From assembly GCA_965208315.1 (NCBI GenBank), contig OZ242329.1, forward strand, positions 704,082 through 768,081: a DNA stretch of 64,000 nt, in the 5' to 3' direction. The stretch comes from Chloroflexota bacterium (GTDB lineage Bacteria; Chloroflexota; UBA11872; VXOZ01). Below are positions 10-52,279 of the stretch, one piece after another (the stretch's first letter is position 1; each line of letters starts with the position of its first letter). The notes below the pieces were generated by a model. The model ran no database searches. It saw nothing but the letters and a program-made list of their open reading frames with translations, and had not been told where the DNA came from. Position numbers and translations under genes: made by a program.

Positions 10-1422
10 ATGACCCGAAATGTGTCCAAGTCTGCAAGGGATTCTATTGTGCGGCAAGTCGAGTTAGGGGCCGCGCGAGCGGATGAAGTGCTGCCGGAAC
101 GCGCCCCCCTTTGGGCGGGCGCCGCCAAGACGCAAATCACCCCGCCAATTGGCAGCCTGCTCCAGAGCGGCATGACGGTCGTGTCAACCGGCGTGCACGA
201 CGACCTCTACAGCACCGCCGTCGTCTTGGATGACGGCGAAACGAAGGTCGCGCTGGTAGGCAACGACATCATCTACATGGAAGCCCCGCTGGCGGCGGAA
301 ATTCGCGCCCGCATCGCTGAACAGACCGGAATTCTTGGCGAAAACGTCCTTTTGAATGCTTCTCACACACACTCCGGGCCGAACATCTGCGTCATTTCGC
401 CGTATGAGATCGACATGGAGTACCGTGAATGGCTGATCCGGCAAATCGTGGATACGGTGGCCAAAGCGGAGGCGGCCCTGGAACCCGCTTCACTGGCTAT
501 CGGAGAAGCGGAGGGCATGTTTGCCGTCAATCGCCGCAAGGTGGTGGACGGCACGTCGAGCATGCTGCCGAACTACGCGGCTACCGTCGACAACCGGGCG
601 CGGGTCTTGCGCTTTGATCGTCTGGATGGCTCGGTGCTGGCCGTAGTCTTCTCGGTCGCTTGCCACGGCACCGGCTTCGACTACCGAGGCAACGATTCCC
701 TCATAGGCGGCGACTACATTTCCCCGGCCAAAGACGAGATTGAGCGCTCGTTCGCCACGGAAGGAGCGCCCATTGCAGTCTTTCTCACTGGCTGCGGCGG
801 CAATATTCGCCCGCGCGTGCTCACGCCGGACGGTGAACGCTTTCATCCGTGCACGGCAGCGGAGATTGCGGCCCTCGGCCGCGGCGCGGGCGCGGTGGCC
901 GTGCGCGCCGCCCGCGAGAGCCACATGGCCGTGGGGTATCCGCTTGCGGTGGCTCGAGAGCAGTTTCCGTTGCCCTTTCAAGAGCCGCCAACTATTGAGG
1001 AACTGCGTGCCTACCGCGCGGACCCACGTCGCACCCGTTATCATCCCTGGGCCGACCGTCTCATAAGGAAACTGGAAAACGGCGAGGACCTACCGCGCAC
1101 CGTGGATATGGAAGTGCACGTCCTGCGGCTCGGCGGCGTTTGCATCATCGCTATGGGCGGAGAAGTGTTTGTGGAGATCGGGCTCGCCATTGAGCAGGCG
1201 CTGCAGGAGAATCACGAGGTGCAAATGGCACTCACCCTCGGCTACAGCAACTCGGAAGTGGGCTACGTTTGCACCGCCAGCGCCTATCCCGAAGGCGGTT
1301 CCGAACCGGCCGACTTCTACCGCTGGTTCTGGTATCCCGCGCCGTTCAAGCCGGAGACTGAGGACTTTGTCGTGGATCGGGCCGTCGCGCTCGCTCGGCG
1401 GGTTTGCGATCTACATAACTGA
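10..1422 (+). CDS. neutral/alkaline ceramidase-like hydrolase family protein
   Basis: 470-aa ORF. ITPPIG near the N-terminus and NASHTHSGP motif typical of bacterial neutral ceramidase N-domain proteins. ATG at 10. Confidence 0.6.
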   Translation: MTRNVSKSARDSIVRQVELGAARADEVLPERAPLWAGAAKTQITPPIGSLLQSGMTVVSTGVHDDLYSTAVVLDDGETKVALVGNDIIYMEAPLAAEIRARIAEQTGILGENVLLNASHTHSGPNICVISPYEIDMEYREWLIRQIVDTVAKAEAALEPASLAIGEAEGMFAVNRRKVVDGTSSMLPNYAATVDNRARVLRFDRLDGSVLAVVFSVACHGTGFDYRGNDSLIGGDYISPAKDEIERSFATEGAPIAVFLTGCGGNIRPRVLTPDGERFHPCTAAEIAALGRGAGAVAVRAARESHMAVGYPLAVAREQFPLPFQEPPTIEELRAYRADPRRTRYHPWADRLIRKLENGEDLPRTVDMEVHVLRLGGVCIIAMGGEVFVEIGLAIEQALQENHEVQMALTLGYSNSEVGYVCTASAYPEGGSEPADFYRWFWYPAPFKPETEDFVVDRAVALARRVCDLHN

Positions 1423-1472
1423 ATGATGAGACTGACGATAGTTGTAACGTCTTTGAATTGAGGAAACAGAGA

Positions 1473-2870
1473 ATGTCTGGAAAAGTGCGCATGGGCGCGG
1501 TGAAAGTGAACATCACACCGCCGGTAGGCACCCATCTCGGCGGGTACGGAAACCGCCAGAGACCTTCCGACGATATTCACGATGACCTCTTCGCTTCTGC
1601 CCATGTGTTTGCGGACGAGACAACGACCGTTGCCGTCGTCGGCGCGGATCTCGTCGACATATCACTGCAGCGTACGCGCGCCATTCGCAAGAAGATTGCG
1701 GCTGCGACGGGCATACCGGGCTCCCACGTCATGTTGGGCATGACTCATGCCCATAGCGGGCCCAATACAAAAGACTGGGGCGCGGGATTGCCGGGCGCCG
1801 GCGTCCCGTATCCGGGCGGTATACCGGATGAGGACCTCACCTATGCTTTGCCCATCCTCGACCATGACTACCTTGCCGAGTTGGAAAACAAGATCACCGG
1901 CGCGGTTGCCATGGCGGCGCAACGACTGCGGCCCGTCGTGGGTGACATAGGCACCGGCGAGTACGGCCTCGCCATTAACCGCCGGGGCGAGCGGAACGGC
2001 GAAGTGGTCAATTGCCCACGCCCCGATGGACTCGTTGATCACTCAGTGCCCGTGCTGCGCTTTGATGCGGAAAATGGCCATCCGGCGGGTATCATCTTCA
2101 ACTATGCCTGCCATCCGACGAGCATGAGCGATAACTACGCCATCAGCGCCGACTATATCGGCCCGTCTCGATCCTTCGTAGAGGAGGTCTATCGTGATGA
2201 CTGTGTAGTGGGCTTTCTGCTCGGCTGCCACGGCGACATTCGACCCAACTACACCGACGAAACGGGCAGCCGCTTTCGCTCGGCGACGTTTCCCGAGCTT
2301 GAGAGGGAAGGCCGCATCATGGGCGCGGAAGTTGTGAAGACTCGGGAGCGCATCAGCCCCCGTTCCCTTGAGGGAGTTGCCGCTGCGAGCACGCCCATCG
2401 TCGCCCCTTACAGCGAACCGCCAACCGCTGAGTACCTGTGCGCGTCCCTTGAAAGTGGGGCGTACCCCGATAAGGGAAGAGGGCTGTCATTCTCTAACGC
2501 CCGATGGGCTCAGCGCATTCTCGGTCAGCTCGAAGCCGGTACTTTGGCCGACGGCTTGGAAACAGAGCTCCAAGTGATCCGCGTCGGACACCTGGTATTC
2601 GTCGGCTTTCCCGGAGAATTCTTCTTGGAGTACGGCATGGAGACGCGCACGCGCGTCAAGGAACAGTTTGGGCTGGACGTCGTCCACGTAAGCATGGCCA
2701 ACGACATGATCGGCTATGTGGCTTCGGACCGAGAGATTCCGCGCCGCGGCTACGAAGTCGGCTCCTTTCATGACGATGAATTGGCACCGTCTTACTTCGA
2801 CTATGGCACCCAAGGCCTCTTTGTAAACCGGGCGCTTGAGCTTGTAGGCGAGACTCTTGCGAATTCATGA
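1473..2870 (+). CDS. neutral/alkaline ceramidase-like hydrolase family protein (tandem paralog)
   Basis: Same family as the upstream gene (NITPPVG, GMTHAHSGPN). Track ORF begins at TTG 1458. ATG 1473 is preceded by GAGGAAAC, a likely RBS. Confidence 0.6.
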   Translation: MSGKVRMGAVKVNITPPVGTHLGGYGNRQRPSDDIHDDLFASAHVFADETTTVAVVGADLVDISLQRTRAIRKKIAAATGIPGSHVMLGMTHAHSGPNTKDWGAGLPGAGVPYPGGIPDEDLTYALPILDHDYLAELENKITGAVAMAAQRLRPVVGDIGTGEYGLAINRRGERNGEVVNCPRPDGLVDHSVPVLRFDAENGHPAGIIFNYACHPTSMSDNYAISADYIGPSRSFVEEVYRDDCVVGFLLGCHGDIRPNYTDETGSRFRSATFPELEREGRIMGAEVVKTRERISPRSLEGVAAASTPIVAPYSEPPTAEYLCASLESGAYPDKGRGLSFSNARWAQRILGQLEAGTLADGLETELQVIRVGHLVFVGFPGEFFLEYGMETRTRVKEQFGLDVVHVSMANDMIGYVASDREIPRRGYEVGSFHDDELAPSYFDYGTQGLFVNRALELVGETLANS

Positions 2871-3084
2871 ACAGGCGCCAGGCCGATCCTTGAGACACGT
2901 CTAGTTCACGTAGACAGCCTCCTTGCCCAGGGCAACGTGGATCGATTGCGGTAACCAAGCTAGGGAACGACTGCTGGGTGGGACGGCAGGCACGATTTGA
3001 AGGCTTATAACAGCGCGTGCTACGCTTAGACAGACCTCTCACGTAGCTCTATGCTGCTCTTATGCTCCTACTGAAAGACCCTGC

Positions 3085-4053
3085 ATGCAGACCCCCATCG
3101 AACCCGGCATCTTTCTTCCCGCGCTGGAACTCTGGCTCGATTCGCGGCGCGTGAAGCCGGAAGGGTACATCTCTCATGCCCACAGCGACCACCTGGCCTC
3201 GCACCATCACGTGCTCGCCACCGCCGAGACCATAGCCCTCGCCGCCCAGCGGATGAAGATCAAGCAGGCGCAGCCGCTACGTTTCGGTGAGCCGCTGGAG
3301 CGCGACGGCTATACATTGACACTCCTCCCGGCAGGCCACTGCCTCGGCTCGGCGCAGGTTGTCATAGACGTGCGCGCTACCGGGGAACGTATCGTGTATA
3401 CGGGCGACCTGCACCTTGGGGATGATCTGTTCGGGCAACCGGCGGAACCCATTCCCTGCGACACGCTCATCATCGATGCCACGTTCGGACATCCGGACTA
3501 CGTCTTTCCCGCGCGCGCGACCGTAAGCGAGGACGTGTGCGCGTGGGTGGAAGAAACTCTCCATTACGGTGAAGTACCCGTTGTCCTCGCGTATAGCCTC
3601 GGTAAAGGCCAGGAAGCGCTGTACATCCTGCTTGAAGCCGGTTTCGAGGTGCAAGTGCACGAGTCCACGTTTGCGATGACAGCGGTATACCAACAAATGG
3701 GGGTGCGATTTCCTGGACGGTTCACCCGCTGGCGCGGCAGACGGGAGGCAGGCACGGTAGTGCTGATGCCGCCGCACGTGCGCAGCCGGCGCGAGATGTT
3801 TGCCCTTGCGCCGTACCGCACGCTTCTGCTCAGCGGCTGGGCGGCCGACCCATCCTGCAAGTATCGGATGCGCGTCGATGAGGCACTTCCCCTGAGCGAT
3901 CATTGCGACTGGAATCAACTCAACGACTACGTTGCGCAGTCGCAACCCCAGCGTGTGTTTACGATGTTTGGCCCGCAGCACTTTTCTGCTTTTCTGCGTG
4001 ATAAAGGTATCGATGCCTGGCCCCTGGAAGCCAGGCAACCGGCAATGTTCTGA
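3085..4053 (+). CDS. MBL-fold metallo-hydrolase (beta-CASP-like; possibly DNA-repair associated exonuclease)
   Basis: HAHSDH (HxHxDH) motif at the N-terminus. 322 aa. Confidence 0.5.
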   Translation: MQTPIEPGIFLPALELWLDSRRVKPEGYISHAHSDHLASHHHVLATAETIALAAQRMKIKQAQPLRFGEPLERDGYTLTLLPAGHCLGSAQVVIDVRATGERIVYTGDLHLGDDLFGQPAEPIPCDTLIIDATFGHPDYVFPARATVSEDVCAWVEETLHYGEVPVVLAYSLGKGQEALYILLEAGFEVQVHESTFAMTAVYQQMGVRFPGRFTRWRGRREAGTVVLMPPHVRSRREMFALAPYRTLLLSGWAADPSCKYRMRVDEALPLSDHCDWNQLNDYVAQSQPQRVFTMFGPQHFSAFLRDKGIDAWPLEARQPAMF

Positions 4054-7106: not shown

Positions 7107-8021
7107 TCAGCCTTGGGTGGTTGTGATCTGATCGACAAACTCCCGCACCACAGCCGCACAGTCCTCCGGTTGTTCCAGGGGGAGAAAGTGTGTGGCATCA
7201 GGCAAGAAGTCGTAGTCCACGCTAAGAATGTCGCTTAGATCTAACGTTGGAAGGTACGAGTAGGGCAGAGTGGGATCAGCCCCGATCACCTTTATGGGAC
7301 AGTGAAACTTCCCAAAATCCACAAGCACAGCGTAGGGGCTGGCGTAGTCCACAATCTGCGCTTCATACTCTGGCGGACACCGCAACTCAAAGCCGGATCC
7401 CCCTTCACTATTGCGCAACGTGGCCTGCGCGATGAGTCTAGTAGTGCCAGGAACGGTGTGCCGGAACGTCGGCGCAAAACTGAGCAGTTCCTCGAAGTCC
7501 TCCCTGGATTTGAAGTGAAAAGTGCGTCTTCTGGCATACCCTGCCGCGCGTGTCGCTGCCGCATCGAACTCCTCGTAGCTGGCTCCTGGCTTGCAGAGCG
7601 GGGGGTCAAAGAGGATGAGCGCCGCGTGCCGGCTGCCCTTCGTCGGCGAAACGAGCGTCGCCAGAGAAGAAACTGAGTGATAAACCCCAGTCAGGGGCTT
7701 CTCGCCAAAGTGGGACTCAATCGCATCCAGGATGAGGTCATGATCGTTGGCGAAGGTCGCAACAGTGTGCTCTCTTATCGAACTGACGGTGTTCCAGCCA
7801 TGGTTTCTCAAGTCATGCACGATGAGGTCGAAGTCGTCGGCGAGCAGAGACCAGAAGGGGTAGTACAGGTCGATGGCCAGACCGTTGCCATGGCACAGCA
7901 CAAGCCGCGGGCCGTCAGGATTGCCGTGGCGTCGCAGAGTGATAGTGGTTTCATCATCCACCGGAACGTCCAACGTGGCGAGGGGTTGGGGTACGTGCCA
8001 AATTGCATCCGAATCTGTCAT
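7107..8021 (-). CDS. alpha/beta-hydrolase fold protein (candidate product-release thioesterase/hydrolase of the PKS cluster)
   Basis: 304-aa ORF. VLCHGNG and TGVYHSVSS nucleophile-elbow-like region. Located just downstream of the PPTase and ACP genes. Confidence 0.4.
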   Translation of the reverse strand: MTDSDAIWHVPQPLATLDVPVDDETTITLRRHGNPDGPRLVLCHGNGLAIDLYYPFWSLLADDFDLIVHDLRNHGWNTVSSIREHTVATFANDHDLILDAIESHFGEKPLTGVYHSVSSLATLVSPTKGSRHAALILFDPPLCKPGASYEEFDAAATRAAGYARRRTFHFKSREDFEELLSFAPTFRHTVPGTTRLIAQATLRNSEGGSGFELRCPPEYEAQIVDYASPYAVLVDFGKFHCPIKVIGADPTLPYSYLPTLDLSDILSVDYDFLPDATHFLPLEQPEDCAAVVREFVDQITTTQG

Positions 8022-8028
8022 TGAGGTG

Positions 8029-8742
8029 CTAGTCTTTCCGCGCTGAGACTCCGCTCAATTCAATTGCTACAGCAGCCGCGAATTCCTGGTTGCCGAGGTC
8101 TTCGATTTGCCACGTGACCTCGGGCAGTCGTGGCAACTGTAGCATACCGCTCTCTCTGCCGCCTACCGTCGCTGCGGGAATCCTGATGCACGTTGCGTCC
8201 AGCACGAATCCTTCGCCCAACGCCTTCAATACCGCTTCTTTGAGGGTCCACAGCTTGAAAAAGAGGTGCGTTCGCGCTTGTCCTTGGGTCAAGGCAAGTG
8301 CCGTCTTCTCTTCCGGGCCAAGCACGGTGTCGATAAGCAAGCTGAGGTCACGCCGCGGGTCGCGTTCCTCGATGTCCACGCCCAAGCGTCCGGTTGGAGC
8401 GCACGCCACCAGCCCATGGTTCCCACTGTGGCTCACGTTGAAGCTAACGGAAGCGGGTTGGTCTTGCACCAGTGCGTACGGTTTTCCAAAGCGGGACGCG
8501 CGAAAGGCAAGCTGCTCGTTCTGGCAATGCAGCTCCTCACAGAGAATGGCGCGCAGAGCGGCGCGACACAGTGTAAAGCGACGGCGCGGCCCATCATACG
8601 CGAAGCGCTGCCGGCGAGCTTGCTCCTGGCCGTCGAGCCATCCCAAGGCTTCACTTTCCCATTCTTTATTCGGGTGATAAGTCAACGTGGATGATAGTCG
8701 TACTGCCAACGTCCCTGAAGTGGTTGCACCAACTGCTGTCAA
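8029..8742 (-). CDS. 4'-phosphopantetheinyl transferase, Sfp-type
   Basis: FNVSHSG, GVDIE and WTLKEAVLKALG motifs. Confidence 0.8.
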   Translation of the reverse strand: MTAVGATTSGTLAVRLSSTLTYHPNKEWESEALGWLDGQEQARRQRFAYDGPRRRFTLCRAALRAILCEELHCQNEQLAFRASRFGKPYALVQDQPASVSFNVSHSGNHGLVACAPTGRLGVDIEERDPRRDLSLLIDTVLGPEEKTALALTQGQARTHLFFKLWTLKEAVLKALGEGFVLDATCIRIPAATVGGRESGMLQLPRLPEVTWQIEDLGNQEFAAAVAIELSGVSARKD

Positions 8743-8802: not shown

Positions 8803-8834
8803 TCAAAAAAAGCGCCGCTCCTCATGGAGCGGCG
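8803..8834 (-). terminator. intrinsic terminator after stand-alone ACP gene
   Basis: GC hairpin GCGCCGCTCC-TCAT-GGAGCGGCG followed on the minus strand by a U7 tract. Confidence 0.55.
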
Positions 8835-8892
8835 ACTCTTCCGAACCAAGTGACGAAGACTCAGTCCCAAGTTTCATTGCTTAGGCGCCTGC

Positions 8893-9138
8893 CTAGGCAG
8901 CTTGCGAATCGAGGAACTCGATAAGCTCTTGTAGGTTGTTGATGGTTGGGCACTGCTCGCGAGAAAACTCCAGTTTGAACTCCTGAGCGACCACTTTGGT
9001 AAAGGCGACCACATCCATGGAAGATACGCCCGCCTCCGTCAGACTGACGCTCAAATCGAGCGATGAACTGAGCGGCTTTCCGTCTACTTCAAGATTGTCA
9101 GCGACGAGTTGCCTAATTCGATCTTCCGTTGAAGCCAT
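8893..9138 (-). CDS. stand-alone acyl carrier protein
   Basis: 81 aa, acidic, four-helix ACP-like. Phosphopantetheine serine context LTEAGVSSMDVV. AGGAGGA RBS upstream. Confidence 0.75.
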   Translation of the reverse strand: MASTEDRIRQLVADNLEVDGKPLSSSLDLSVSLTEAGVSSMDVVAFTKVVAQEFKLEFSREQCPTINNLQELIEFLDSQAA

Positions 9139-9310
9139 GCCTGTTTCCTCCTCTTTTGAAATGCTTCATTGCATAGAACTGTTGGCAGCATAGCAAGACA
9201 AGCCGTACTCGTCAAATCTACTGTACCGTCTCTTGTCTACGCTTTTAAACATTGGGCGTAATTCTGGGGCACAATCCTGAAAATCAATCCTGAGACGTAA
9301 TCGCCTTTCT

Positions 9311-12300
9311 TCAGGTCGATGCAATTCCCTTCGATGCCGCTATCCAGTGGCGGCGGCGCTGGAAGGGATAGCTCGGCAGCCCGATGCGCCGCCGAGACTC
9401 CCCGGTGAAGAGTCCTTTGAGTGAGATTGTGAGGCCGGTTTCGTATGCCTTTGCCACCGCCTCGAGAAACCCACGGTCAGAGTCGCAGGGCGGACTATCG
9501 GCTGAAGGACGTAAAAGGCTCTCGATTATCACCGGCATGGGGGCGTTAGACGCCGCTCCGGTCTGAACCGGCCACAAGTCTTGTATGGTAGGAGTGAGCC
9601 CTGGCTGCGGACCAATCTCGATAACCAGGTCTACGCCCAGTTCCGCCAACGTTTCGATGCAGCTTTGGAGATTCGCTGTCTCACCTGCTTGCTGCTCCCA
9701 GTAGGTCCCCTCGAGCAATGCTTCCGGTTCTGCCACGCGCCCCGTTACGCTGCTCACCAGCGGTACGGACGGTTGTGCAGCCTCAACGCCCGCAAAGGCC
9801 GCGTTCAGTTCACTTGAGTTCACTGTATCCGCCTGACCGGCAGTGGCGGCTGTCGACAAAGCGCCTCGCGCTGCGGCAAGGCGCAACCCATCCTCAAGAC
9901 CGAATACACCCGCTGCTTGCGCTGCCGCAAGCTCGCCGAGGTCGTGGCCCACGACCACGCTCGGTTGAATGCCTATGCTCGCCCACAGCGCCGTGAGCGC
10001 GCACTCGAGCGCGTATACGGCCGGCTGCGCCCACGTTGGGTCGTCCAGATCTGCTGCGTCACCGGCCCGACCAAACATCACGTCCAACAACGAGGTACTG
10101 CATTCCTTCAAGAGAAAAGCGTCACAGCGGTCGAGAACCGCGCGAACCACGGGATCTTGATCGTAGAGCGCTTTGCCCATGCCAACCCATTGGCTACCCT
10201 GATCGGTAAACGCAAAGGCTACTGTACTTACTGCCCGCGGTTCAGGTTCCTCGAGGTCTCCTTCCGTTTCGGCGAGATCTTCTAACTGTTCTCGCAATTC
10301 CATAAAATCTTGGAACGTTAATCCTGCACGATGCGGGAAATGGCTGCGTCCGACGCTGGCAGTCCAAGCCATATCCGAGAGCAGGGAAGCAGCAGCGGGG
10401 TCTGCCGGGTCAAGAACCTTGGCATAGCCATCGAGCCAGGTCAAATAGCGTTCTGCCAACTGGCGCAGAGCCTGACGGGTCTTGCCGGAGAGAGGCAACA
10501 GCTTTGTTGATCGTTCAGATTGCGCCTCCGCTACGGGAATTTCTGCGGCATCTTCCGGCAAGGGAGCAGGAACCTCACGTGATGCGCCGGCCGGCCAGCG
10601 GTCATTGGCATGTTCGGCGGAATCATCTTCCGGCGCGCTGTAGCCTTCTACCACCACGTGCGCGTTTGCGCCTGAAATTCCAAAGACATTGACACTTGCG
10701 CGCTGTGGTTGCTTGGCAGCGCGAGGCCAATCCATGGCCTCGGACGTCACCCGCACCGGCAACCGCTCCCAATCGATGTCGGGATTCGGCGTGTGGAAGT
10801 TGAGGTGCCTTGGAATCAGCCCCCGATTCATTGCCAGGACAGTCTTGATCAGGCTGGCGACGCCGCCAGCCGCCTCCAGGTGGCCGATGTTCGTCTTGAC
10901 CGAGCCGATCAACAGGGGGTTTTCAGCCTCGCGGCCTCGGCCATAGACGTTGGCTGCGGCATTGAGTTCGACCGCGTCGCCCAATGCTGTGCCGGGGCCG
11001 TGGGCTTCAAAGTAGTCCACCTCGGCCGGTGCGATACCTGCCTGCGCCAATGCTTCCTCCATAGCGCGCTCTTGGGCCGGCCCGTTGGGTAGCGTGAGAC
11101 CCAAACCGGCGCCGTTCTGGTTCACTGCCGAACCACGCACCACGCCCCAGATGCGGTCGCCGTCCGCTTGAGCATCGCTCAGGCGCTTCAATATCACCAT
11201 GCCGCAGCCCTCGCCCCGCACGTATCCATCCGCTGATGCGTCGAACGTTCTGCACTGTCCGCTCAGCGAAAGCATGCCTGCGTCCGCCAAGAATCGCAGT
11301 ACTGACTGTGAAAGCGCCGCATTTACGCCTCCAGCCAGAGCCATGTCTATCTCGCCACGCTGCAAACTCGTAGCCGCTTGGTGCACCGCCACAAGCGATG
11401 CGGCGCAGGCCAACTCCAGCGGTACGGCCGGCCCTTCCAAACCGAGCGCAAAGGCAATCCGCCCCACGGTTACGCCGCCTGAAGTACCCAGGAAGTCATC
11501 GTCACTACCGCTGGCAGTAATGACGCTCCGATACTCACTGCCGCCAACTCCTGCGTAGACACCGGTGCGGCTCCCCCGTAGACTATCGGGGTCAATCCCG
11601 GCATCCTCGAGGGCTTGCCAGCTCGTCTCCAACAGCAGCCGCTGCTGTGGGTCCATCATGCGTGCCTCGATGGGAGAAATGCGGAAGAACCGCGAATCAA
11701 AGAGGTCAATTCCTTCCAGGAATGCCCCGTGTCGCATCGCAGCGTCTTTGGCCTCTGGGTCGCCGGCGATTCCGTTCCAGGATCCGGCGTCCTGACGCCC
11801 CTCTGTTACCATGTTTCGTTCCGATTGCATCAGCCTCCAGAAGCCATCAAGATCCTCTGCCCCCGGTACCCGGCACGCCATGCCGACAATGGCTATCCCC
11901 TCCTCTACGCTCGCAGCCTGCGGGCGCTGCTCCTGGACGGGCTGCTCGGGCAGTGTTGCCGGTACGTCAGCACCCGTGAATCCGTCGGCGCTGCCAAGTT
12001 CACCTGCCAGGTGGCGGGCAAGACCCGAGATACTCGGATAGTCGAAGACCACTGTATTGGATGCCACATACTCACCGGCAAAGCCGCGGTTGATGCGGTT
12101 GCGCAACTCTACCGCCATCAGCGAATCCATGCCCAAGTCGGAGAACTCGACGGTTGGCGCGGGAGTTGTGTTCAATCTCAGCACTGCTTGCACTTCCTGT
12201 TGCAGGAAGGCCGCCAGCACGTCCTCGCGCTCCGCCGGTGGCGCGTTCCGTAGCCGGGACAACAGGTCTTCCGACGTTGCTGCTTCATCGGCTTGCTCGT

Positions 12301-15300
12301 CAGTGGCCGAGGCGAGCAGGTCTTCCAAGAAAAGCGGACGATCCTCGACAGCCTCTGCAAACACCGACCAATCCATCGACATCACCACGGAGGTTGTGGC
12401 GTCCTGTCGCACCAGCAACTCAAGCGCCTTGATGCCTTGTTGCGGCGTAAACCAGCGACCGCCGAGGGCCGCCCGCCGCTGCTCGATCCGCTCGCGTTGT
12501 TCCGCGGCCTCGCCGATCTCCGACCACGCGCCCCAGGCAATGGCTTGTCCCGGCAGACCCAACGCGCGACGGTAGCCGGCAAGCTGGTCCAGAAAGGCAT
12601 TGGCCGCGGCATGGTTCGCCTGGCCGGGATTGCCCATGACACCGACCCGGCTCGAAAAGAGGATGAACAGATCCAGATCACAGTCCAGGGTTGCGCGGTG
12701 CAGGTGCCAAGCCCCCAGAATCTTCGGCCACAGCACGCGCTCGAAGCTCTCCCAGGTCTGGTTGGTAAGCGCGGCGTCCGACAGCACGCCCACACTGTGA
12801 ATGACACCGCCCAGTGGCGGCAAGCTGGCATCGATGCGCGCCAACATGGCGTCGATGGCTGCAGTATCCGTCACGTCTGCCAGTTCGACTTCGATCCTGA
12901 CCCCGCGATCACGCAGGGCAGCGATGGCTGCCTCCGCCTCGGCATCGGGATTACGGCGGCCGTTCAGCACGATTGTGCCCGCGCCGCAAGCCGCGAGCCA
13001 TTCCGCCACGGCGCAGCCGATGCCGCCCAGACCGCCGGTCACCAGGTAGGTGCGGTCCTGACGCAACTGACCCCGCAAGAGCGGAGGCGGCGTGAGCACG
13101 ATCTTGCCAATGTGCCGGGCTGAGCGCATGAATCCCAAAGCGGCTCCCGCCTCGGCCAGCGGCCAGCGGCTATGGATGAGCGGCGTGAGGTCACCGGATA
13201 CAATGCCATCCATGACCTCGCGCAGTACTTCCCCTACCCACGCCGGGTCGGTTTTCTTCAGAACATCCAGTTCCAGGATGTCGTACTTCACGTCCGGTCG
13301 GACGGCCGCCATCTCCTCGTGGCTGAGGATGTCCCGCCTGGCTAATTCGACAAAGCGTCCGCCCTGCGCCAGGCAGGCTAAACTGGCTTCGATAAAGCCC
13401 TCGCTTGTGAGGCTGTTCAGCACTACATGCACACCCTCGCCGCCGGTGGCTGCGAGGATTTCATCGCCAAACGCGGTCGTGCGGCTGTCGAAAATGTGGT
13501 TGATGCCGACTGACCGGAGATATGCCTGCTTTGGCGCGCTGGCCGTGGCGAATACTTCCACGCCGGCAGCTTGCGCCAACTGGATCGCTGCCAGTCCCAC
13601 GCCACCCGCGCCCGCATGGATCAGTACTCTGTCTCCCGGCTCCAGCCCGGAGTAATGGTATGACAGTGCAGCCGACACGAACGCGCTGGGCACGGTAGCC
13701 AACGCCGAGACTGACATGCCTTCAGGGGCCGGCGCCACCAACTCCTCATGCGTGACCATTTCCGGCGCAAATGCGCCGAAACCTAGTCCAACCACGCTAT
13801 CGCCGACGGACACATTCGAGACATCTGAGCCAACGTCGAGAATGCGACCGCACATCTCCCGGCCCAGATTGCCTTCCTCGATAAAGCCAAGCGAGCGGAA
13901 GACGTCCCAGAAATTCAGCCCGGTGGCCTCGACTGCGACGCGCACCTCATTCGGCTCCAAGGAGTGCGCGGGCAGCATCTTGATCTCCGGCTCGTCGAAC
14001 ACACCTCCTTTGTTAGGGACTAATACCCATTCCGATTCCTCTGGCAGGGAAAGGCGCTCAGACGCGGCAGCGGGCCGCAGCAGGCGTGCCGCATGACGGC
14101 TTCCCAACCGGTAGGCGATGTGGTTCTCGCGGTCGGGATACATGAGCTCATTCGCGAGGTCTGACAGCAGTTCAGGCTCGGCGGGATCCAAATCGATCAT
14201 CCGGGGCTGCAGATGCGGGGCTTCCAAGGATACAACCTTGCCGAGACCCCACAGAGGGGCGCCGGCCAGTTCGCCGGCGTTCTCGCGTTCCAACACTTGT
14301 GCCCCGCGCGTGAAAAACCACACACCGTTTGCGGGAATCACGTCGGATTCGGCCACACCTTGTACCAGCGCCAGCGCACTTGCTCCTGCGCGTTTCACGT
14401 CCGCCGCAATCTCTTGAGTGGTTGCTTCCGCTCCGTGACCGTCCAAGCCCGCGAGGTGCACTACGCCGCTGAATGGAACATCCTGCGGTAGGCTCTCGAT
14501 CAGCGTGCGCCACGCTTCACGAGACGCCATGTCAAATGCAGTTTTGCGAATCGCGTTGCCAACCACTGCCGTCACACCGCTTGCAGGCGCTGCGTCGCTT
14601 GCCAGGACGACTGTTTGATTTCGCTCCGCCAATTGCGCCGCGAGTTCTTCCGCCACGCTACCATTGTCTGCGGTCAGCACCCACACGCCGGGTGGTTCAT
14701 CAATCTTTGCCGGACCGGAAGCTATGATCACACCCTTATCCGGCGTCTTGGATGAGTCGGCCTCGTCCGGCCCTAAGACTTCCGCTTCCGCGAAACCTGC
14801 GTCACTCAGAGCTTGGCGCCACACCGCAGGGCTTGCCAAGGCGTGATGGGGGCGGTAGTCGTCGGCAAACCGCCACCAGCCGTCCAACTGTCCAAACGTC
14901 AGGTCCATCCAGCCCAGGCCGCTGAGATTCTCCAGCGCAATCAACTGTCCCGATGGCGCTAGCAGCGCCCGGCAATGCGCCAGCGTCTCTTCGAGATAGC
15001 GCGTGGCGTGCAGCACGTTGGAGGCAATCAATAGGTCATAGCCGTGGGCAGCGTAGCCCTGCTCGATGGGGTCTTTTTCAATGTCCAACGGACGGTATTC
15101 GATGCACCCGCCGCCATCGCCAAATCTCGCTTCCGCTTCTGCAAAGAAACCCGCTGAGATATCCGTGTACATGTAATCAAACTGGCCAGCAGGTAGCTCC
15201 GGCAGCACGGAGGCGGTTGCCGATCCCGTGCCCGCGCCGACCTCGATGACCCGCAGCCGCCGTCCTGTGGGCAGAGCGGCTACCAATGCCTGAACCGCGT

Positions 15301-18300
15301 CCGCCAGCATCCGGTTTGCCGCGCGGGCCACCGGCGCTTTCAGGTAGAGGTCGGCCGCCGTCGGTTCCCCGCTGCTGAAGAGCAGCGTCAAAGGGTCTTC
15401 CCGGCCGCGGAGCACCTCAGCCAGGGCGAGGCCGGACCGCCGGAAGAGGCCGATTTCAATCTGGCCCTGAGGGTATTGGCCTGTCATCCAATCTGTGAAT
15501 GCTTCAATGTCGCTTGGCATCTCTTCCGGCAGCGGATCATCCGGGCCTACGACGACGACAAAGCCGTCGCTCGTTTCCTCAAGCACTTCTGACTTTGCGA
15601 GCATTTCAAATAGCCGGCGGAAAAGGCGCGTGTGCTCCGGGAGGACGTCAAGCTGCTGCCGCACCTCCTCCGGGTCCACGACAGCGCCCTTGACGCGCTG
15701 CCAGCCCAATTCCTCTAACGTCGCGAGCGCGCGGGACCGAGACCAGCGCTCCAAGTCCGCCAGCAGGGCGTCTCTGCCTTGCGGATCGACTTCCGCGTCC
15801 GTCAGGTATCCGGTGAACAATTGCGTATGGGCCGCAATCTCGGACGGATTTGGGAAGAAGCCCGCAGGCAATACTCCAGACTCAAGCGCATGTTCGCGCC
15901 AGACGACCTCGTACAGCAGGTCGTCGACACCCTCTTCCCCTGCAACCGCCGCCAGCAAGGCCGCCTGTGTGGCGCGCTTCACCGTGTATCCGTTAATCTC
16001 ACCGACTAATGCGCCATTTGGATCGTAGATACGTACTTCGCCACTCAAGACTTCGGGCGGATCACCCCCTTCTGATTCGGCGTCCTGAGATGCTTCACTC
16101 ATGACCACGTGGCAGATCACGCGCTCCGGCAGTCCTCCGGCAAGCCACAGACGCTCCCAGCCGAAGGGCAAATAGGTTGCCTCGCCCGGGGCGCCGGTCA
16201 TGTTGCGTGCAACGCCTACGACCTGAAAGCAGCCATCCAGCACAAGCGGGTGCACGTCTAGGTCATTGCGATCCAAACCCTCGGGCAGGGAGATTTCTGC
16301 CAAAGCCTCGCCAGGACCGGACCAGACCTTGCCAAGCGTACGGAAGAACGGACCCAGGTTGATACCGGTTGCAGCCTTCGCGCCGTATAGGCAGATTTAT
16401 CAGCGGGTGAGAGACTTGCTCGCAGGCTATCCAGGTCAAGGTGTGCTGCGGTCTCCGGCGGTGCAGCGCCCGACGAGACTTGGGCCTCCACATGCAGGGT
16501 CCATTCGCCCTCAGTTCCCTTGCTGTAAATCTGGACGTGGCGCGACGCCGTTTCCTCTGATGCGTCGAGCAAAACCTGCACATGCCGGACCGCATCCTCG
16601 ACCCCGTCACTCGAGTCATTCTCAGCAAATACCAGTGGGCTGTGCAGTTGCATGTCTTCAATCGCTATCGGGCCGTTTCCATCCAGGAACGCTAACGCGG
16701 CTGCCATTGCGCCGTAGAGCGCCCCCGGTACCACGAGTCGTCCGAAGACGCGGTGGTCTTGCAGCCAGGCCGGGTCTGATGGGTATACTTCTGTCTCGAA
16801 GATGATTTCGCCGCGGGCTGATTCATGGCGAAGGCCGAGCAAGGGGTGATCGGTGGTTGTTCGCCGTCGTTTTGCCGGTTGCAGCCAGTGGCGTTCGCGC
16901 TGGAACGGGTAGCCCGGCAAGGAGATGCGACGCCGGGTCTCTCCGGCGAATAAGCCCGCGAAAGAGACTTCGAGTCCCGCCTCGTAGGCCGCGGCTACCG
17001 CATCCACAAAGCTATTTTCAGATTCAGGTGATGATCCATCTCGAGGCGGACGCCGCAGGCTAGAGAGCACAACCGGCGTCCCGACAGCATCTTGGTTCGA
17101 TGCCGCATCAGGCCAGGCCAGCGTCGTCATGGGGCCCAGCACGGCGTGCGGGCCTATCTCGATCACGAGGTCTACGTTGCATTCAGCCAAGACTCGGACT
17201 CCGCTGGCAAACGCCACTGGCTCGCGCGCGTGCCGCCGCCAGTAAGCGCCGTCCAGCGCCATGCCGGAATCGACGGCACTGCCAGTCAGGTTGCTGATCA
17301 CAGTCAAGGTGGGGGAACCAATTGCCACATCATCCAGAGCAGCTTCCAACTCATCCAGGGCCGGTTCCACCAAGGGACTGTGGAAAGCGCGGGTCGTGTT
17401 GAGCCGCCGTACCCGTACCCCCTCCGATTCAAAGCGCTTCACGAGAGATTCAATGTTTGCAACCGGCCCGCTGACCACTGTGTGGGCGCCGTTGTCCGCC
17501 GCAAGGCTGAGACCGATGCCGTCGGACACCGCGTTGAGATCGTCAACCGCTGCCGCCACGCGCGACGCCGGGGCAAAGACGGCAGCCATCGTACCGGGTT
17601 CTGTTTCGGACAGGAGGGTGCCGCGCCGCGCGGCAAACCGCATCCCGTCTTCCAGGCTGAAGACGCCCGTGGCCTGTGCGCGGCCAGTTCCCCGACGCTA
17701 TGTCCCAGCACCACGCTCGGTTGGATGCCCACGCTTGCCCAGAGCGCCGTCAAAGCGCACTCCAGCGCGTACAAGGCCGGCTGCTCCCACGCGGTATCGC
17801 CCAAGTCGTCGCTCGCGCCGGGCCGCCCGAACATAACGTCCAGGAGAGAGGCACCTCTTTCTTCCTGGAATACCGCTTCACAACGGTCCAGCACCGCTCT
17901 CGCTACCGGCTCCGTCTCGTAGAGGGCCTTGCCCATGCCAACCCACTGGCTCCCTTGCCCCGTGTAGACGAACGCCACTTGAGATGGCGGTGAGGACTTC
18001 TCTGTAGCGGTGGCCTCAGTCAGCTCGCTGAGCCGCTCTTTCAATGAGGCGATGTCGTGAAAGACGGCGCTCGCACGGTGGTCGAAGTGGCCCCGTCCGA
18101 TACCCGCTGTCCATGACATGTCCGCAAGCAAAGACTCCAAGTCTGCGACTTCTTCGGAAGTCTCTGCCGCCCGTTCGTCGAGCCACGCGAGATACCGTTG
18201 CGCAAGTTCCCGGAGCGCGCCCTCGGACTTGGCCGACAGTGGCAGGAACCGGGCTTGGCGTTGTGCAAACTCTTCCTGTTGCGGGGCTGAAGCGGTCACT

Positions 18301-19754
18301 GGCTCAGGTAGCGAGACCGCCACAGCCTGTGCCGCGCCCGCCGTCTGAAGCTCCTGACTGGGTTCACCGTTTGTGCCGCGATACTCCCCCACCACAATGT
18401 GGGCATTCGTCCCGGAAATCCCGAAAGAATTCACCCCCGCGAGGCGCGGCCGTTGGCGGTCTTGCGGCCAGTCCATCATGTCTGATGTTATCTGCAGCGG
18501 CAGACGCTCCCAGTCCGTACTGGGATTGGGGTCACGGAAGTGCAGGTGTTTGGGAATCACCCCTGTATTCACCACCAGCGCCGCTTTGATGACCCCTGCG
18601 ATGCCGGCCGCGGATTCCAAGTGGCCGACGTTTGTTTTCACAGAGCCTACGAGCAACGGATGGTTGGGGTCGCGCTCGCGGCCGTACACATTGGCCACGG
18701 CATCTATTTCGATGGGATCGCCAACGGCGGTTCCTGTGCCGTGCGCCTCAAGATAATCGACCTGCGAGGGGAGTACGCCTGCGTCAGCCAAGGCGGTTTC
18801 CATCACTTGTTCCAACGCGGGCGTGTGTGGAACGGTCAGGCCGACGCTGGCGCCGCCGTGATTTACCGCTGAGCTGCGAATCACCGCCCAGATGCGATCC
18901 CCGTCAGCCTCCGCCTCGCTGAGCCGCTTCAAGACAACGACCCCGCAGCCTTCGCCTCGCACGTAGCCGTCCGCAGAGGCATCGAAGGTCTTGCACTGGC
19001 CTTCCGGGGACAGCATCATCGACTCGGCGCGCAATTCGTAAATGCGACCGTTTAAAATGGCCTGCACGCCGCCCGCGATGGCGAGGTCCGCTTTGCCGTG
19101 CTGCAGGTCTGCCACCGCGTCATTTACGGCCACCATGGCTGAGGCGCACGCAGCGTCCACAGCCTTTGCCGGTCCCATGAGACCCAGAACAAAGGAGACT
19201 CGACCGCTGGTGCCATTGAGGTTGGTGCCGCTCAGGGCGTAGAGAGAGCCCGCAGCCTCGCCAGGCTTGGTGGAGTCTACGACCAGCATGCGGTATTCAT
19301 CGTTGCTGATGCCGGTGTACACCCCGGTGCGGCTGCCTTTCAGTCGGCTGGGATCGATGCCCGCGTCCTCGAGGGCGAGCCAGCTTGCCTCAAGCATCAT
19401 GCGTTGCTGTGGGTCTAGCATCTCGGCCTCAACCGGCGAAATGCGGAAGAACTCCGCGTCAAACTTGTCGATGTCATCGACAAAGGCACCGAAGCGGCAT
19501 GCCTGGTTTTGCACGTCAAGATCGCGGAAGATTTCCCCCATGCGACCCTCACCGGAAGCGAGGTCGCCTTCGGTGACCGCATTCTTGCCATCTAGCAGGA
19601 ACTGCCAGAAGGAGTCCAAGTCACCGGCGCCGGGAAAGCGGCACGCCATACCGACAATGGCAATTGGTTCGTCAGGTTGTGAAGTATTCTTATTCACAGG
19701 ACGCGGCCGGCTAGTCGCGTGTGTAGGGCTACTTTGAATATCAGCTGACCCCAT
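9311..19754 (-). CDS. type I polyketide synthase, KS-AT-DH-cMT-ER-KR-ACP-KS-AT(degenerate); reading frame interrupted by two apparent 1-nt indels (possible pseudogene or sequencing errors)
   Basis: Three overlapping minus-strand ORFs form one gene (17439-19760, 16258-17643, 9311-16303). Motifs: KS DAACAS/EAHGTGT/NVGHLE; AT GHSVGE then AFHSPL; DH HRVFGRLVVPG and LDGCFQ; MT VIEVGAGTG; ER HAGAGGVG; KR TGGLGGIG; ACP LGMDSL; KS2 ELACAAS/EAHGPGT; AT2 GHDLGE. Likely start ATG 19754 after GAAAGG. Confidence 0.85.
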
Positions 19755-19943
19755 TGTCAACCTTTCATGGCGTATGCACTGAGCGCTGCGACAGCTCTTT
19801 TGCTTGCTATCGAGCGGATGTGTGATTCGGCTATATTAGTGCAGGGCACGTCGCACATTTGGCGACAACAGCTTTAGAGGTATTTTACACCGAATTGCTG
19901 CCTTGATTCGAGGGTGCTTTTATACCAAAGCAGCGTGAGGCGA

Positions 19944-24845: not shown

Positions 24846-24965
24846 TGAAAGTCCTCAGGAGTCTCCAACTGCAATGGGAATGGGAAGAGGGAGACAGCGA
24901 CACTCTCTCTCCATAGTAATGCAAAAGGGTCGCGCGCGCGAAGAGCTTGGGGAAGTGGATAGACT

Positions 24966-49930: not shown

Positions 49931-50288
49931 ATCGGCTGGGGGGTGTCCCAACAGCATTGGGCATTGAGCTGGCCAATACTACAACCACCGTTAAATCTCT
50001 ATGTGGAGGCGGAGGGTGCCAATCCGCCTGACCGGCGCGGCCCGAGGGTTGTGTCAGTCTCGACGATGGGATAGCGGCAACTCTCTCCATGTGCCGGCTC
50101 GCAGGCGTGTACGGAAACACGAGCTGTCTCATGGCTTATTGGCCCCTGCACGAGCGATCCGCCAATAATCCCGTAATGTAGGCTCCCGTACAAAACCAAA
50201 TCACAGTGGGTGCTATGCTCAAAATAGGAAAACTCATGCAAGTCAGGGCAGTGCGAATCTCTGCCTGCCACAAAATGGAAGGGGCCGC

Positions 50289-51053
50289 ATGAGGAACATC
50301 CAGGCATCCACGCGCAGGACGAACCTGCGTCCACACCGTCAGGACAACGGTCGGCTGGCTCTCTACAGCCATACCCTTTCCTGCATCTCCAAGTTAGAGA
50401 TCTTTGCGGAGCTCTTGCCCCACGAAATCAGCGAGATCGATCATGCGAGCGCGACCGTAAAGATCGGCAAGGGCGGAGTGATCTACGCGCAGGAAGAGAG
50501 CCGCGAGGTGCTCTTTCTCATCAAAGAAGGCCGTGTCCAGCTCTACCGCATTTCGTTTGAAGGGCGCAAGCTTGTGCTGGCTATGCTCGGGCCGGATATG
50601 TTCTTTGGCGAGATGCCGCTCTTTGGGCAGGCTATGGGTGATTCGGTGGCTCAAGCCGTGGACGACACGACGCTATGCACGCTCGGACGTGCCGAAGTGG
50701 AGCGAATTCTGGTGACTTATCCCCGGATCGGCCTGCGCCTTATTCAGGTGCTCAACGAGCGGCTTCAGGATGCTGAGGAGCGCCTGCATGAGAGCGCGTT
50801 CATGACGATGCCTGCCCGCACTGCCGCGCTGATCTTGCGCCTCGCGGAGGATTCCGATGAAGTGCACGGCCTTACCCACCAGGACTTGGCGGACATGCTC
50901 GGTGTCTATCGTGAAACCGTGACTGCGACACTGGACAAGCTGAAGCATGACGATCTGCTGGAGATCGGCCGCAAGCGGATTACATTGACCAATCGCTCCG
51001 CTCTCGAAGACCTCGTACAGGGTTCTGCAAGCACCCCATTGCAAGGAGAGTAA
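50289..51053 (+). CDS. Crp/Fnr family transcriptional regulator
   Basis: cNMP-binding beta-barrel and C-terminal HTH LTHQDLADMLGVYRETVT. Confidence 0.65.
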   Translation: MRNIQASTRRTNLRPHRQDNGRLALYSHTLSCISKLEIFAELLPHEISEIDHASATVKIGKGGVIYAQEESREVLFLIKEGRVQLYRISFEGRKLVLAMLGPDMFFGEMPLFGQAMGDSVAQAVDDTTLCTLGRAEVERILVTYPRIGLRLIQVLNERLQDAEERLHESAFMTMPARTAALILRLAEDSDEVHGLTHQDLADMLGVYRETVTATLDKLKHDDLLEIGRKRITLTNRSALEDLVQGSASTPLQGE

Positions 51054-51058
51054 CTCGC

Positions 51059-52279
51059 ATGAAGCGACCGACACGCAAACTCATGAGTCGCCGCAACATT
51101 CTGCTGGCTGCCGGCACCGCCACGGCGGCAATCGTAGCGGTAGCAGCCTGCGGACAGATGCCGGAGGAAGCACCCGAAGAGAAAGCTGAACCCGCCGCCA
51201 CATCGCAAGCGGAAGCGGCGCAGCCCACTCCTTCGCCTGATCTGCCTCCTAACGTTCAGTTCTCCACTTTTGGCTGGAAGACAGACTTCTCCAAGCACAG
51301 TGTGCCGTTGGACGAAATCAGCTCCGGTGGACCTGGAAAAGACGGCATTCCATCCATTGACTTTCCGCAATTTAACTCAGTCGACAAGGCATTCTATGCC
51401 GACACGGAACCCGTTGTAGTGGTGGAGGTGAATGGCGAAGCGAAGGCGTATCCCATTGAAATCCTGATCTGGCACGAAATCGTGAATGACACTCTCGGCG
51501 GCGTGCCGGTAACGGTGACGTTTTGCCCGCTGTGCAATACCGCCATCGCATTCGATCGACGCCTCGACGGCATTGTCTATGACTTTGGCGTGAGCGGCAA
51601 CCTGCGCTATAGCGACCTCATCATGTACGACCGCCAAACCGAGAGTTGGTGGCAGCAGATTACGGGAACAGCCATTGTAGGCGAACTCACCGGCAAAAAA
51701 CTCACTTCGATCCCGGCGTCTATCGTCTCTTTTGCAGACTTTCAAAGCACCTACCCGAAAGGCCTGGTGCTCTCAAGCGAGACCGGCTATATGCGGCCCT
51801 ATGGCAGCAATCCATATCCCGGCTACGACAACATTTCCCGCTCTCCTTTTCTGTTCTTCGAGCCTGTTGACAGACGCCTGCCTGCCATGGAGCGGGTGGT
51901 GACGGTATCACTGAATGGTGAGGACGCCGCTTATCCCTTCAACGTGCTGGCGGAACAGAAGGTGGTGGAAGATTCCGTCGGCGGAGAGCCAATTGTGGTC
52001 TTTCATCAACCTGGCGTGGATTCTCCCTTCTCTGCCACGGACATTGGCGCCGCCGGTGTTTTTGCACCCACCCTCGACGGCACAACCCTGAAGTTTAAAG
52101 TGAACGACGACGGGACAATCGTGGATACCGAGACGCAGTCGCAGTGGAACGTCCTCGGCCGCGCTATTGCCGGTCCCCTGGAGGGCAAGCAGCTCCAATC
52201 TATCGTGAACGGCAACCACTTTTGGTTCGCTTGGGCGGTGTTCAAGCCTGAAACGCGAGTCTTTGGCCTATCCGAGTAA
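51059..52279 (+). CDS. lipoprotein, DUF3179-like
   Basis: Lipobox AVAACG. TFCPLCNTAIAFDRR block. Confidence 0.4.
   Translation: MKRPTRKLMSRRNILLAAGTATAAIVAVAACGQMPEEAPEEKAEPAATSQAEAAQPTPSPDLPPNVQFSTFGWKTDFSKHSVPLDEISSGGPGKDGIPSIDFPQFNSVDKAFYADTEPVVVVEVNGEAKAYPIEILIWHEIVNDTLGGVPVTVTFCPLCNTAIAFDRRLDGIVYDFGVSGNLRYSDLIMYDRQTESWWQQITGTAIVGELTGKKLTSIPASIVSFADFQSTYPKGLVLSSETGYMRPYGSNPYPGYDNISRSPFLFFEPVDRRLPAMERVVTVSLNGEDAAYPFNVLAEQKVVEDSVGGEPIVVFHQPGVDSPFSATDIGAAGVFAPTLDGTTLKFKVNDDGTIVDTETQSQWNVLGRAIAGPLEGKQLQSIVNGNHFWFAWAVFKPETRVFGLSE

Follow-up and report, generated by a model that had tools for sequence, protein, structure and literature searches.

A supA-type polyketide synthase gene of a sponge-associated Chloroflexota population, very probably inactivated recently by two single-base deletions

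The Sup ('sponge symbiont ubiquitous') polyketide synthase (PKS) is ubiquitous in high-microbial-abundance sponges (PMC3908369, PMC4245539), and its product is proposed to be mid-chain methyl-branched fatty acids (PMC4245539, PMC9864124). At least one frameshift was present in 15.4% of the distinct supA KS fragments sequenced from one sponge, and the reality of these frameshifts was left open (Della Sala et al. 2014, PMC4245539). Here we describe a supA-like type I PKS gene of 10.4 kb whose reading frame changes twice. It lies on the minus strand (19754..9311) of a 64,000-nucleotide stretch from a Chloroflexota bacterium (assembly GCA_965208315.1, contig OZ242329.1, positions 704,082 to 768,081), hereafter the window. 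Sequence comparisons indicate that this supA-type PKS of a sponge-associated Chloroflexota population is very probably a recently inactivated gene.

By its architecture, accessory genes and host range, the locus appears to match the Sup-type PKS. The Pfam domains found over three open reading frames (ORFs) follow the order KS-AT-DH-MT-ER-KR-ACP-KS-AT, as in the mono-modular type I PKS SupA, in which KS-AT-DH-MT-ER-KR-ACP is followed by a second KS-AT; this canonical order was reportedly described by Fieseler and colleagues in 2007. Discrete genes for an acyl carrier protein (ACP), a 4'-phosphopantetheinyl transferase (PPTase) and a hydrolase lie downstream, again as in Sup. The closest 80 related loci (L010 to L089), found by scanning a single genome for each GTDB species, are almost all from metagenome-assembled genomes (MAGs) of sponge symbionts in more than 10 phyla, i.e., Chloroflexota, Dadabacteria, Latescibacterota, Gemmatimonadota, Acidobacteriota, Binatota and others, with 63-85% identity over AT-DH. 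The contigs of the same species belong to accession series that include bins of the sponge Rhopaloeides odorabile (RHO). Unlike SupA as described, the window copy is broken by two frameshifts, and thus no full-length Sup enzyme is translatable from it.

The frame changes in the PKS are real and far beyond chance. Three overlapping minus-strand ORFs (17439..19760, 16258..17643 and 9311..16303) cover the gene, and in the reverse-complemented sequence the open frame passes from 0 to 2 to 1, so each junction is one base short or carries two surplus bases. When one base is added per site, a single ORF of 3483 codons without an internal stop is obtained. The Pfam matches are cut and rejoined accordingly: the AT domain is split between ORF1 (profile 2-98) and ORF2 (profile 114-272) with 110.9 and 76.1 bits, and the repaired gene has one match of 214.7 bits over profile 2-272; the DH domain is split into PKS_DH_N in ORF2 and PS-DH (profile 52-164) in ORF3, and repair raises PS-DH from 47.1 to 88.4 bits with profile 10-164 covered. 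Gene calls in two other assemblies (L005 and L006, 771 aa) begin with the ATG at 19754. Only the first segment of the gene can be reached from this native start, after which about 80 out-of-frame codons run to a stop at 17439, and the second segment is an open frame with no start of its own except a chance ATG at 17643.

Both indels were placed by alignment with L007, a relative of 88.7% nucleotide identity. At site 1, GCCGC-GCACAG stands against GCCGCGGCGCAG in L007, so that the codons GCC GCG GCA have become GCCGCGCA; the G is lost between A694 and A695 of AT1, six residues past the catalytic Ser688 of GHSVG, and A694 is invariant in all 80 orthologues. This lesion parts Ser688 from the His of the AFHS motif. 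At site 2, GCCTA-TACGGC stands against GCCTATTACCGC, and TAT TAC has become TATAC at DH residues Y1125 and Y1126, both likewise invariant in 80/80 orthologues and just ahead of the LGPFF motif; here the DH His (HxxxGxxxxP) is parted from the DH Asp (LDGCFQ). The junction peptides of the repaired gene are GELAAAQATGVF and KSAYYGAKAATG, also GELAAAQATGVFSLEDGMR and SAYYGAK, and GCCGCGGCACAG and CTATTACGG would mark an intact allele. An earlier note on this DNA, made from the sequence alone, had claimed that two single-nucleotide frameshifts divide the PKS into three ORFs, and the frames, the Pfam splits and the repair bear this out. Its correction of +1 near 17674-17680 holds, with the lesion adjoining 17679. 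The second correction, proposed near 16388-16395, exists as a lesion and lies 1-2 nt outside that interval, at 16387/16386; the reading '...ADKS' followed by 'LYGAK...' at this site was slightly wrong, the restored DH peptide being ...SPADKSAYYGAKAATGINLGPFF... The remark that neither site is a homopolymer was essentially right, both being dinucleotide runs only. The features are listed in Table 1.

Table 1. Features of the supA-like locus and their coordinates in the window
Feature	Coordinates	Strand	Basis
Whole supA-like PKS, putative pseudogene (KS1-AT1-DH-MT-ER-KR-ACP-KS2-AT2)	9311..19754	-	ORF layout, Pfam, repaired 3483-codon ORF
Segment 1: KS1 (~18537..19670), KS-AT linker, N-terminal third of AT1 through GHSVGELAA	17439..19754	-	Pfam
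Frameshift site 1: loss of a G from the GG adjoining 17679	17678..17680	-	Alignment with L007 and four same-species assemblies
Segment 2, shifted by -1 against segment 1: C-terminal two thirds of AT1 with the AFHS His motif, post-AT linker, first hot-dog half of DH (HxxxGxxxxP)	16387..17679	-	Pfam, frames
Frameshift site 2: loss of a T from the TT at 16387/16386	16386..16388	-	Alignment with L007
Segment 3, further -1 shift: DH second half (~15956..16300), MT (~14942..15247), ER (~13094..13954), KR (~12518..13051), ACP (~12008..12205), KS2 (~10793..11902), apparently vestigial AT2 (~9311..10216, GHDLG)	9311..16386	-	Pfam
Discrete ACP gene (81 aa) immediately downstream of the PKS, intact in the window	8893..9138	-	PP-binding match
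4'-Phosphopantetheinyl transferase gene, intact, with a 205-aa form in gene calls	8029..8742	-	
Alpha/beta-hydrolase gene, 304 aa, intact; protein identical in four other assemblies	7107..8021	-	

The split ORFs were traced elsewhere by exact-protein look-ups, which showed that the deletions are not confined to one assembly. The 771-aa and 394-aa split products are encoded on ENA metagenome scaffolds of ERZ23495471 (L005) and ERZ23495530 (L006), which belong to separate BioSamples (SAMN13943213 and SAMN13943214, respectively). The 461-aa product is present in an NCBI Chloroflexota MAG (L008, GCA_028874195.1, contig JAPPLM010000080.1, protein MDE2932186.1) and in L009, a Logan contig of run SRR10996925. 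All four carry both 1-nt deletions and align to the window over 16250-17800 (1551 bp) without gaps at 99.87-99.94% identity. They are distinguished by single-nucleotide polymorphisms (SNPs) at 16825 (T/C, with T in the window alone) and 16350 (C/A, with A in L008 and L009 alone), hence at least three haplotypes carry both deletions.

The orthologues were used to polarize the lesions. The 80 species-representative loci align over residues ~30-3474 of the repaired protein, and every one of them reads through both sites in one frame. The nearest sister species (L010, JAAXIC010000028.1, isolate Plut_88905; 89% amino acid identity) is colinear over 3480 codons and carries a nonsense codon of its own, TGG to TAG at the conserved Trp841 of AT1 (L010:10598); the nearest relative free of lesions (L011, OZ244803.1; 83% amino acid identity) aligns over residues 1-3483 in a single high-scoring segment pair with no stops. 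Orthologues with the same interruptions, which the earlier note held would speak against its interpretation, exist within the species-level population and are absent from the sister species and the 80 lineages, as a recent, lineage-specific inactivation predicts. The ratio of nonsynonymous to synonymous substitution rates (dN/dS, NG86) for the three pairs among the window, L010 and L011 is 0.141, 0.144 and 0.138, and a three-taxon split of these values assigns about 0.15 to the window branch, 0.13 to L010 and 0.14 to L011. In the window, no lesion of the PKS was found beyond the two 1-nt deletions. Since the dN/dS is like that of intact relatives, the gene would have been under normal purifying selection nearly throughout its history, and the inactivation would be young. 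Taken together, the orthologue sequences indicate that the lesions are derived and that the inactivation is recent.

The polymorphism within the population hints that constraint on the gene may since have been relaxed, and the signs of this, small in number, all point one way. Between the window and L008, the 10.4-kb PKS has 8 SNPs and the 10.9 kb of flanks has 2, which is about a fourfold difference in density. Across the assemblies, 12 polymorphisms were found in the PKS, 7 nonsynonymous and 5 synonymous, and five of the seven amino acid changes hit residues without variation among 69-80 orthologues. Two of these five lie within motifs, GQGSQ of the AT (G603E, L008) and LGPFF of the DH (P1138Q, L008 and L009); the others are L1966M (L002), A2068V in the ER nucleotide-binding region (window) and V2373D beside the KR FSS motif (L002 and L003). 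Only about one third of positions (1150/3483) are that conserved, so a constrained gene would be expected to show almost no such changes. In addition, a segment of 1479 bp (8825..10303) that is present in the window, L001 and L008 is missing from L002, L003 and L004, which share one junction. The junction, 10304|8824 by blastn, lies at 3974 in L002, 2519 in L003 and 570 in L004, has no N-gap and overlaps by 1 bp only. The deletion takes out AT2 with the stop codon of the PKS as well as the discrete ACP gene, and it is derived, because sister lineages keep both AT2 and the ACP.

Two independent single-base deletions, GG to G in AT1 and TT to T in DH, each shift the frame by -1 and, as we propose, became fixed in this population. 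The native start would then yield KS1, the first third of AT1 and a nonsense tail of 80 residues, the Ser/His pair of AT1 and the His/Asp pair of DH would fall into different frames, and the MT-ER-KR-ACP-KS2 part would be left without a start of its own. No functional synthase would probably be produced, and the locus may be drifting neutrally, with substitutions gathering in catalytic motifs at residues that are invariant elsewhere, and with the 1.5-kb deletion in one haplotype. The loss could be tolerated if the presumed product were dispensable or supplied by co-resident symbionts with intact sup clusters.

Several points weigh against this interpretation. The polymorphism counts are small, and two of the SNPs, at 14203 and 13867, are close to an N-gap of the L002 scaffold. 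The dN/dS is not measurably raised, which leaves a handful of polymorphisms as the signal of decay, and in the window haplotype the genes for ACP, PPTase and hydrolase have remained intact. The Illumina assemblies that confirm the deletions were probably generated in a single study on one sponge species; they are therefore independent as to BioSample, assembler and haplotype and not as to laboratory. Finally, an intact allele in a minority of the population is compatible with the data.

This last point leads to the alternative that the frameshifted allele is the assembled majority and that part of the cells or strains retain a working, intact allele, which we consider unlikely. The locus is heterogeneous among strains, in its SNP haplotypes as well as in the variant lacking AT2 and ACP, and the searches for an intact allele are weak negatives only. 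In a 15-billion-protein collection, no protein of at least 95% identity spanning either site was found, nor, with a short query across site 1, any fragment of at least 95% identity; in both searches the matches listed were all at most about 1.75 times the query length (up to 1196 aa for the 683-aa query and up to 245 aa for the 140-aa query), so that the lists are enriched in fragments and split genes and full-length orthologues of 3.5 kaa lie outside them. JGI metagenome contigs, scanned for an exact pattern that fits either allele, gave no match, which indicates that the lineage is absent from that collection. Against an intact allele stand also the 5/5 assemblies covering the sites, each with both deletions, and the Logan contig, which is derived from a single run and passes through both sites unbranched and without a break.

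A sequencing or assembly error, with the gene intact in the organism and the missing bases as consensus artefacts, seems very unlikely. A 10.4-kb gene with just two 1-nt lesions and a normal dN/dS does have the look of an error, and the long-read contig L007 (ERZ25068511 ctg60685_5.97x_l) shows many such breaks. On this low-coverage contig supA is broken into five or more ORFs, and the adjacent SBP gene is also split; we had considered it as a sister lineage with independent frameshifts and rejected this at its ~6x coverage, its breaks being most likely consensus errors. L007 was thus used to place indels only and was left out of the pseudogene count. Of the two readings offered in the earlier note, a recent pseudogene or assembly errors, the first stands and the second is effectively excluded by the occurrence of the same deletions in four assemblies that come from two or more BioSamples, were built by different pipelines and differ in their SNP backgrounds, neither site being a long homopolymer. 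Moreover, over 21,386 bp the window and L008 differ by 10 mismatches and one intergenic 2-nt indel and agree on coding indels throughout, which shows that the assemblies are accurate for indels. The 2-nt indel (GT) is at 24903, in the spacer between an ABC-transporter and a molybdopterin-oxidoreductase gene. Among same-strand frames overlapping by more than ~100 nt in the 64-kb window, no further split gene was found; a candidate frameshift at 50169-52279 proved to be two neighbouring genes with a 5-nt gap, and the extra frame changes in L005 and the breaks in L002 and L003 are scaffold N-gaps and not lesions.

Programmed recoding, by which two -1 ribosomal frameshifts or transcriptional slippage would restore the synthase, is extremely improbable: both shifts have the same (-1) direction and the remaining reading frame is perfectly kept, but the sites (G GCC GCG CAC and GCC TAT ACG) contain no X XXY YYZ heptamer and no A/T run, none of the 80 orthologues is frameshifted at either site, where the residues are encoded directly, and invariant catalytic-motif residues are substituted within the population. 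To our knowledge, two separate recoding events in one PKS gene would be unprecedented. A functional split into three proteins was rejected, as the breaks fall inside domain cores.

With the locus read as a recently inactivated supA gene, it is a pseudogene of a known PKS family and ordinary in kind. It should be annotated as a supA pseudogene and not as three PKS genes or an intact biosynthetic cluster, and counts of PKS capacity obtained by genome mining in this Chloroflexota symbiont should leave it out. Split PKS ORFs in low-coverage long-read assemblies such as L007 are no evidence of pseudogenes. The locus would also be a snapshot of gene death, in which the frameshifts are fixed, the dN/dS is still ancestral, and changes at invariant residues and a 1.5-kb deletion are segregating. 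In its few lesions, ancestral dN/dS, fixed frameshifts and beginning deletions it resembles young pseudogenes of host-associated bacteria; it differs from them in that the 64-kb window shows no signs of genome-wide erosion, its other genes looking intact and closely packed.

Lesions are found in other sup loci as well. Internal stops or frame changes occur in supA in 16 of the 80 species-representative loci (20%), and in several cases the stop (TAG, TAA or TGA) arose by substitution, which errors of the indel type cannot produce. Three further loci (L029, L071 and L072) stop abruptly mid-gene. Several loci have a stop at query position 3475, which was not counted as a lesion because it is the natural stop codon read through by tblastn. 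Two loci from the same sponge sample series, L059 (at 10868) and L075 (at 10871), share a TAG at the conserved Trp883 and have 76% nucleotide identity; common descent of this codon was rejected, since the closest relatives of L059 (L033, L047 and L064, 91-93% amino acid identity) have Trp, and the shared TAG is therefore convergent. The bins of R. odorabile carry lesions in 5/8 loci vs. 11/72 elsewhere (Fisher p = 0.007), with assembly quality as a possible confounder of this difference. If the higher rate were true, it would bear on the question whether the Sup product acts as a shared, redundant good in the holobiont. In view of the 16 loci, the separate nonsense codon of L010 at Trp841 and the R. 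odorabile bins, the loss of supA might be recurrent and community-dependent and not a one-off, in the manner of a 'Black Queen' loss of a redundant lipid pathway that possibly depends on the host; this would fit because many phyla of the consortium carry the same horizontally spread cluster, and we put it forward tentatively, as doubtful at present.

The 15.4% of supA amplicons with frameshifts in Plakortis halichondrioides (PMC4245539) is close to the 20% of loci with lesions here. Those amplicons were 454-sequenced, KS-only PCR products from another sponge, whereas the window lesions lie in AT1 and DH of genome assemblies and are verified across assemblies. The window thus provides a cross-assembly verified case that frameshifted supA copies exist in sponge microbiomes, the point left open in that study.

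The repaired protein has several further features that concern the family. The clade of the window, L007, L010 and L011 shares the substitutions G2539E, F2541S, A2560G, S2763G, S2788A, S2886G and A2887L, a block spanning residues 2539-2887 (after ACP, and KS2; window ~11100-12145) at positions that are elsewhere invariant in 70+ lineages. The block is older than the frameshifts, because the intact L011 has it. The GHDLG of AT2 was considered as a third lesion and rejected as family-wide: at residue 3274 (AT2, window 9311-10216), the position of the catalytic Ser, the window has Asp, and D or G is found in 54/56 orthologues (D 11, G 43, S 1, A 1). An in-frame deletion of the AT2 core is present in L012, L019, L022 and L085. 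Judging from these residues and deletions, AT2 looks vestigial in Sup PKSs generally. In the KR, the motif GQANHAAAN (window ~12610-12640) has His at residue 2384, which we take to be the position of the usual catalytic Tyr (YAAAN), and the same His is found in 70/73 orthologues.

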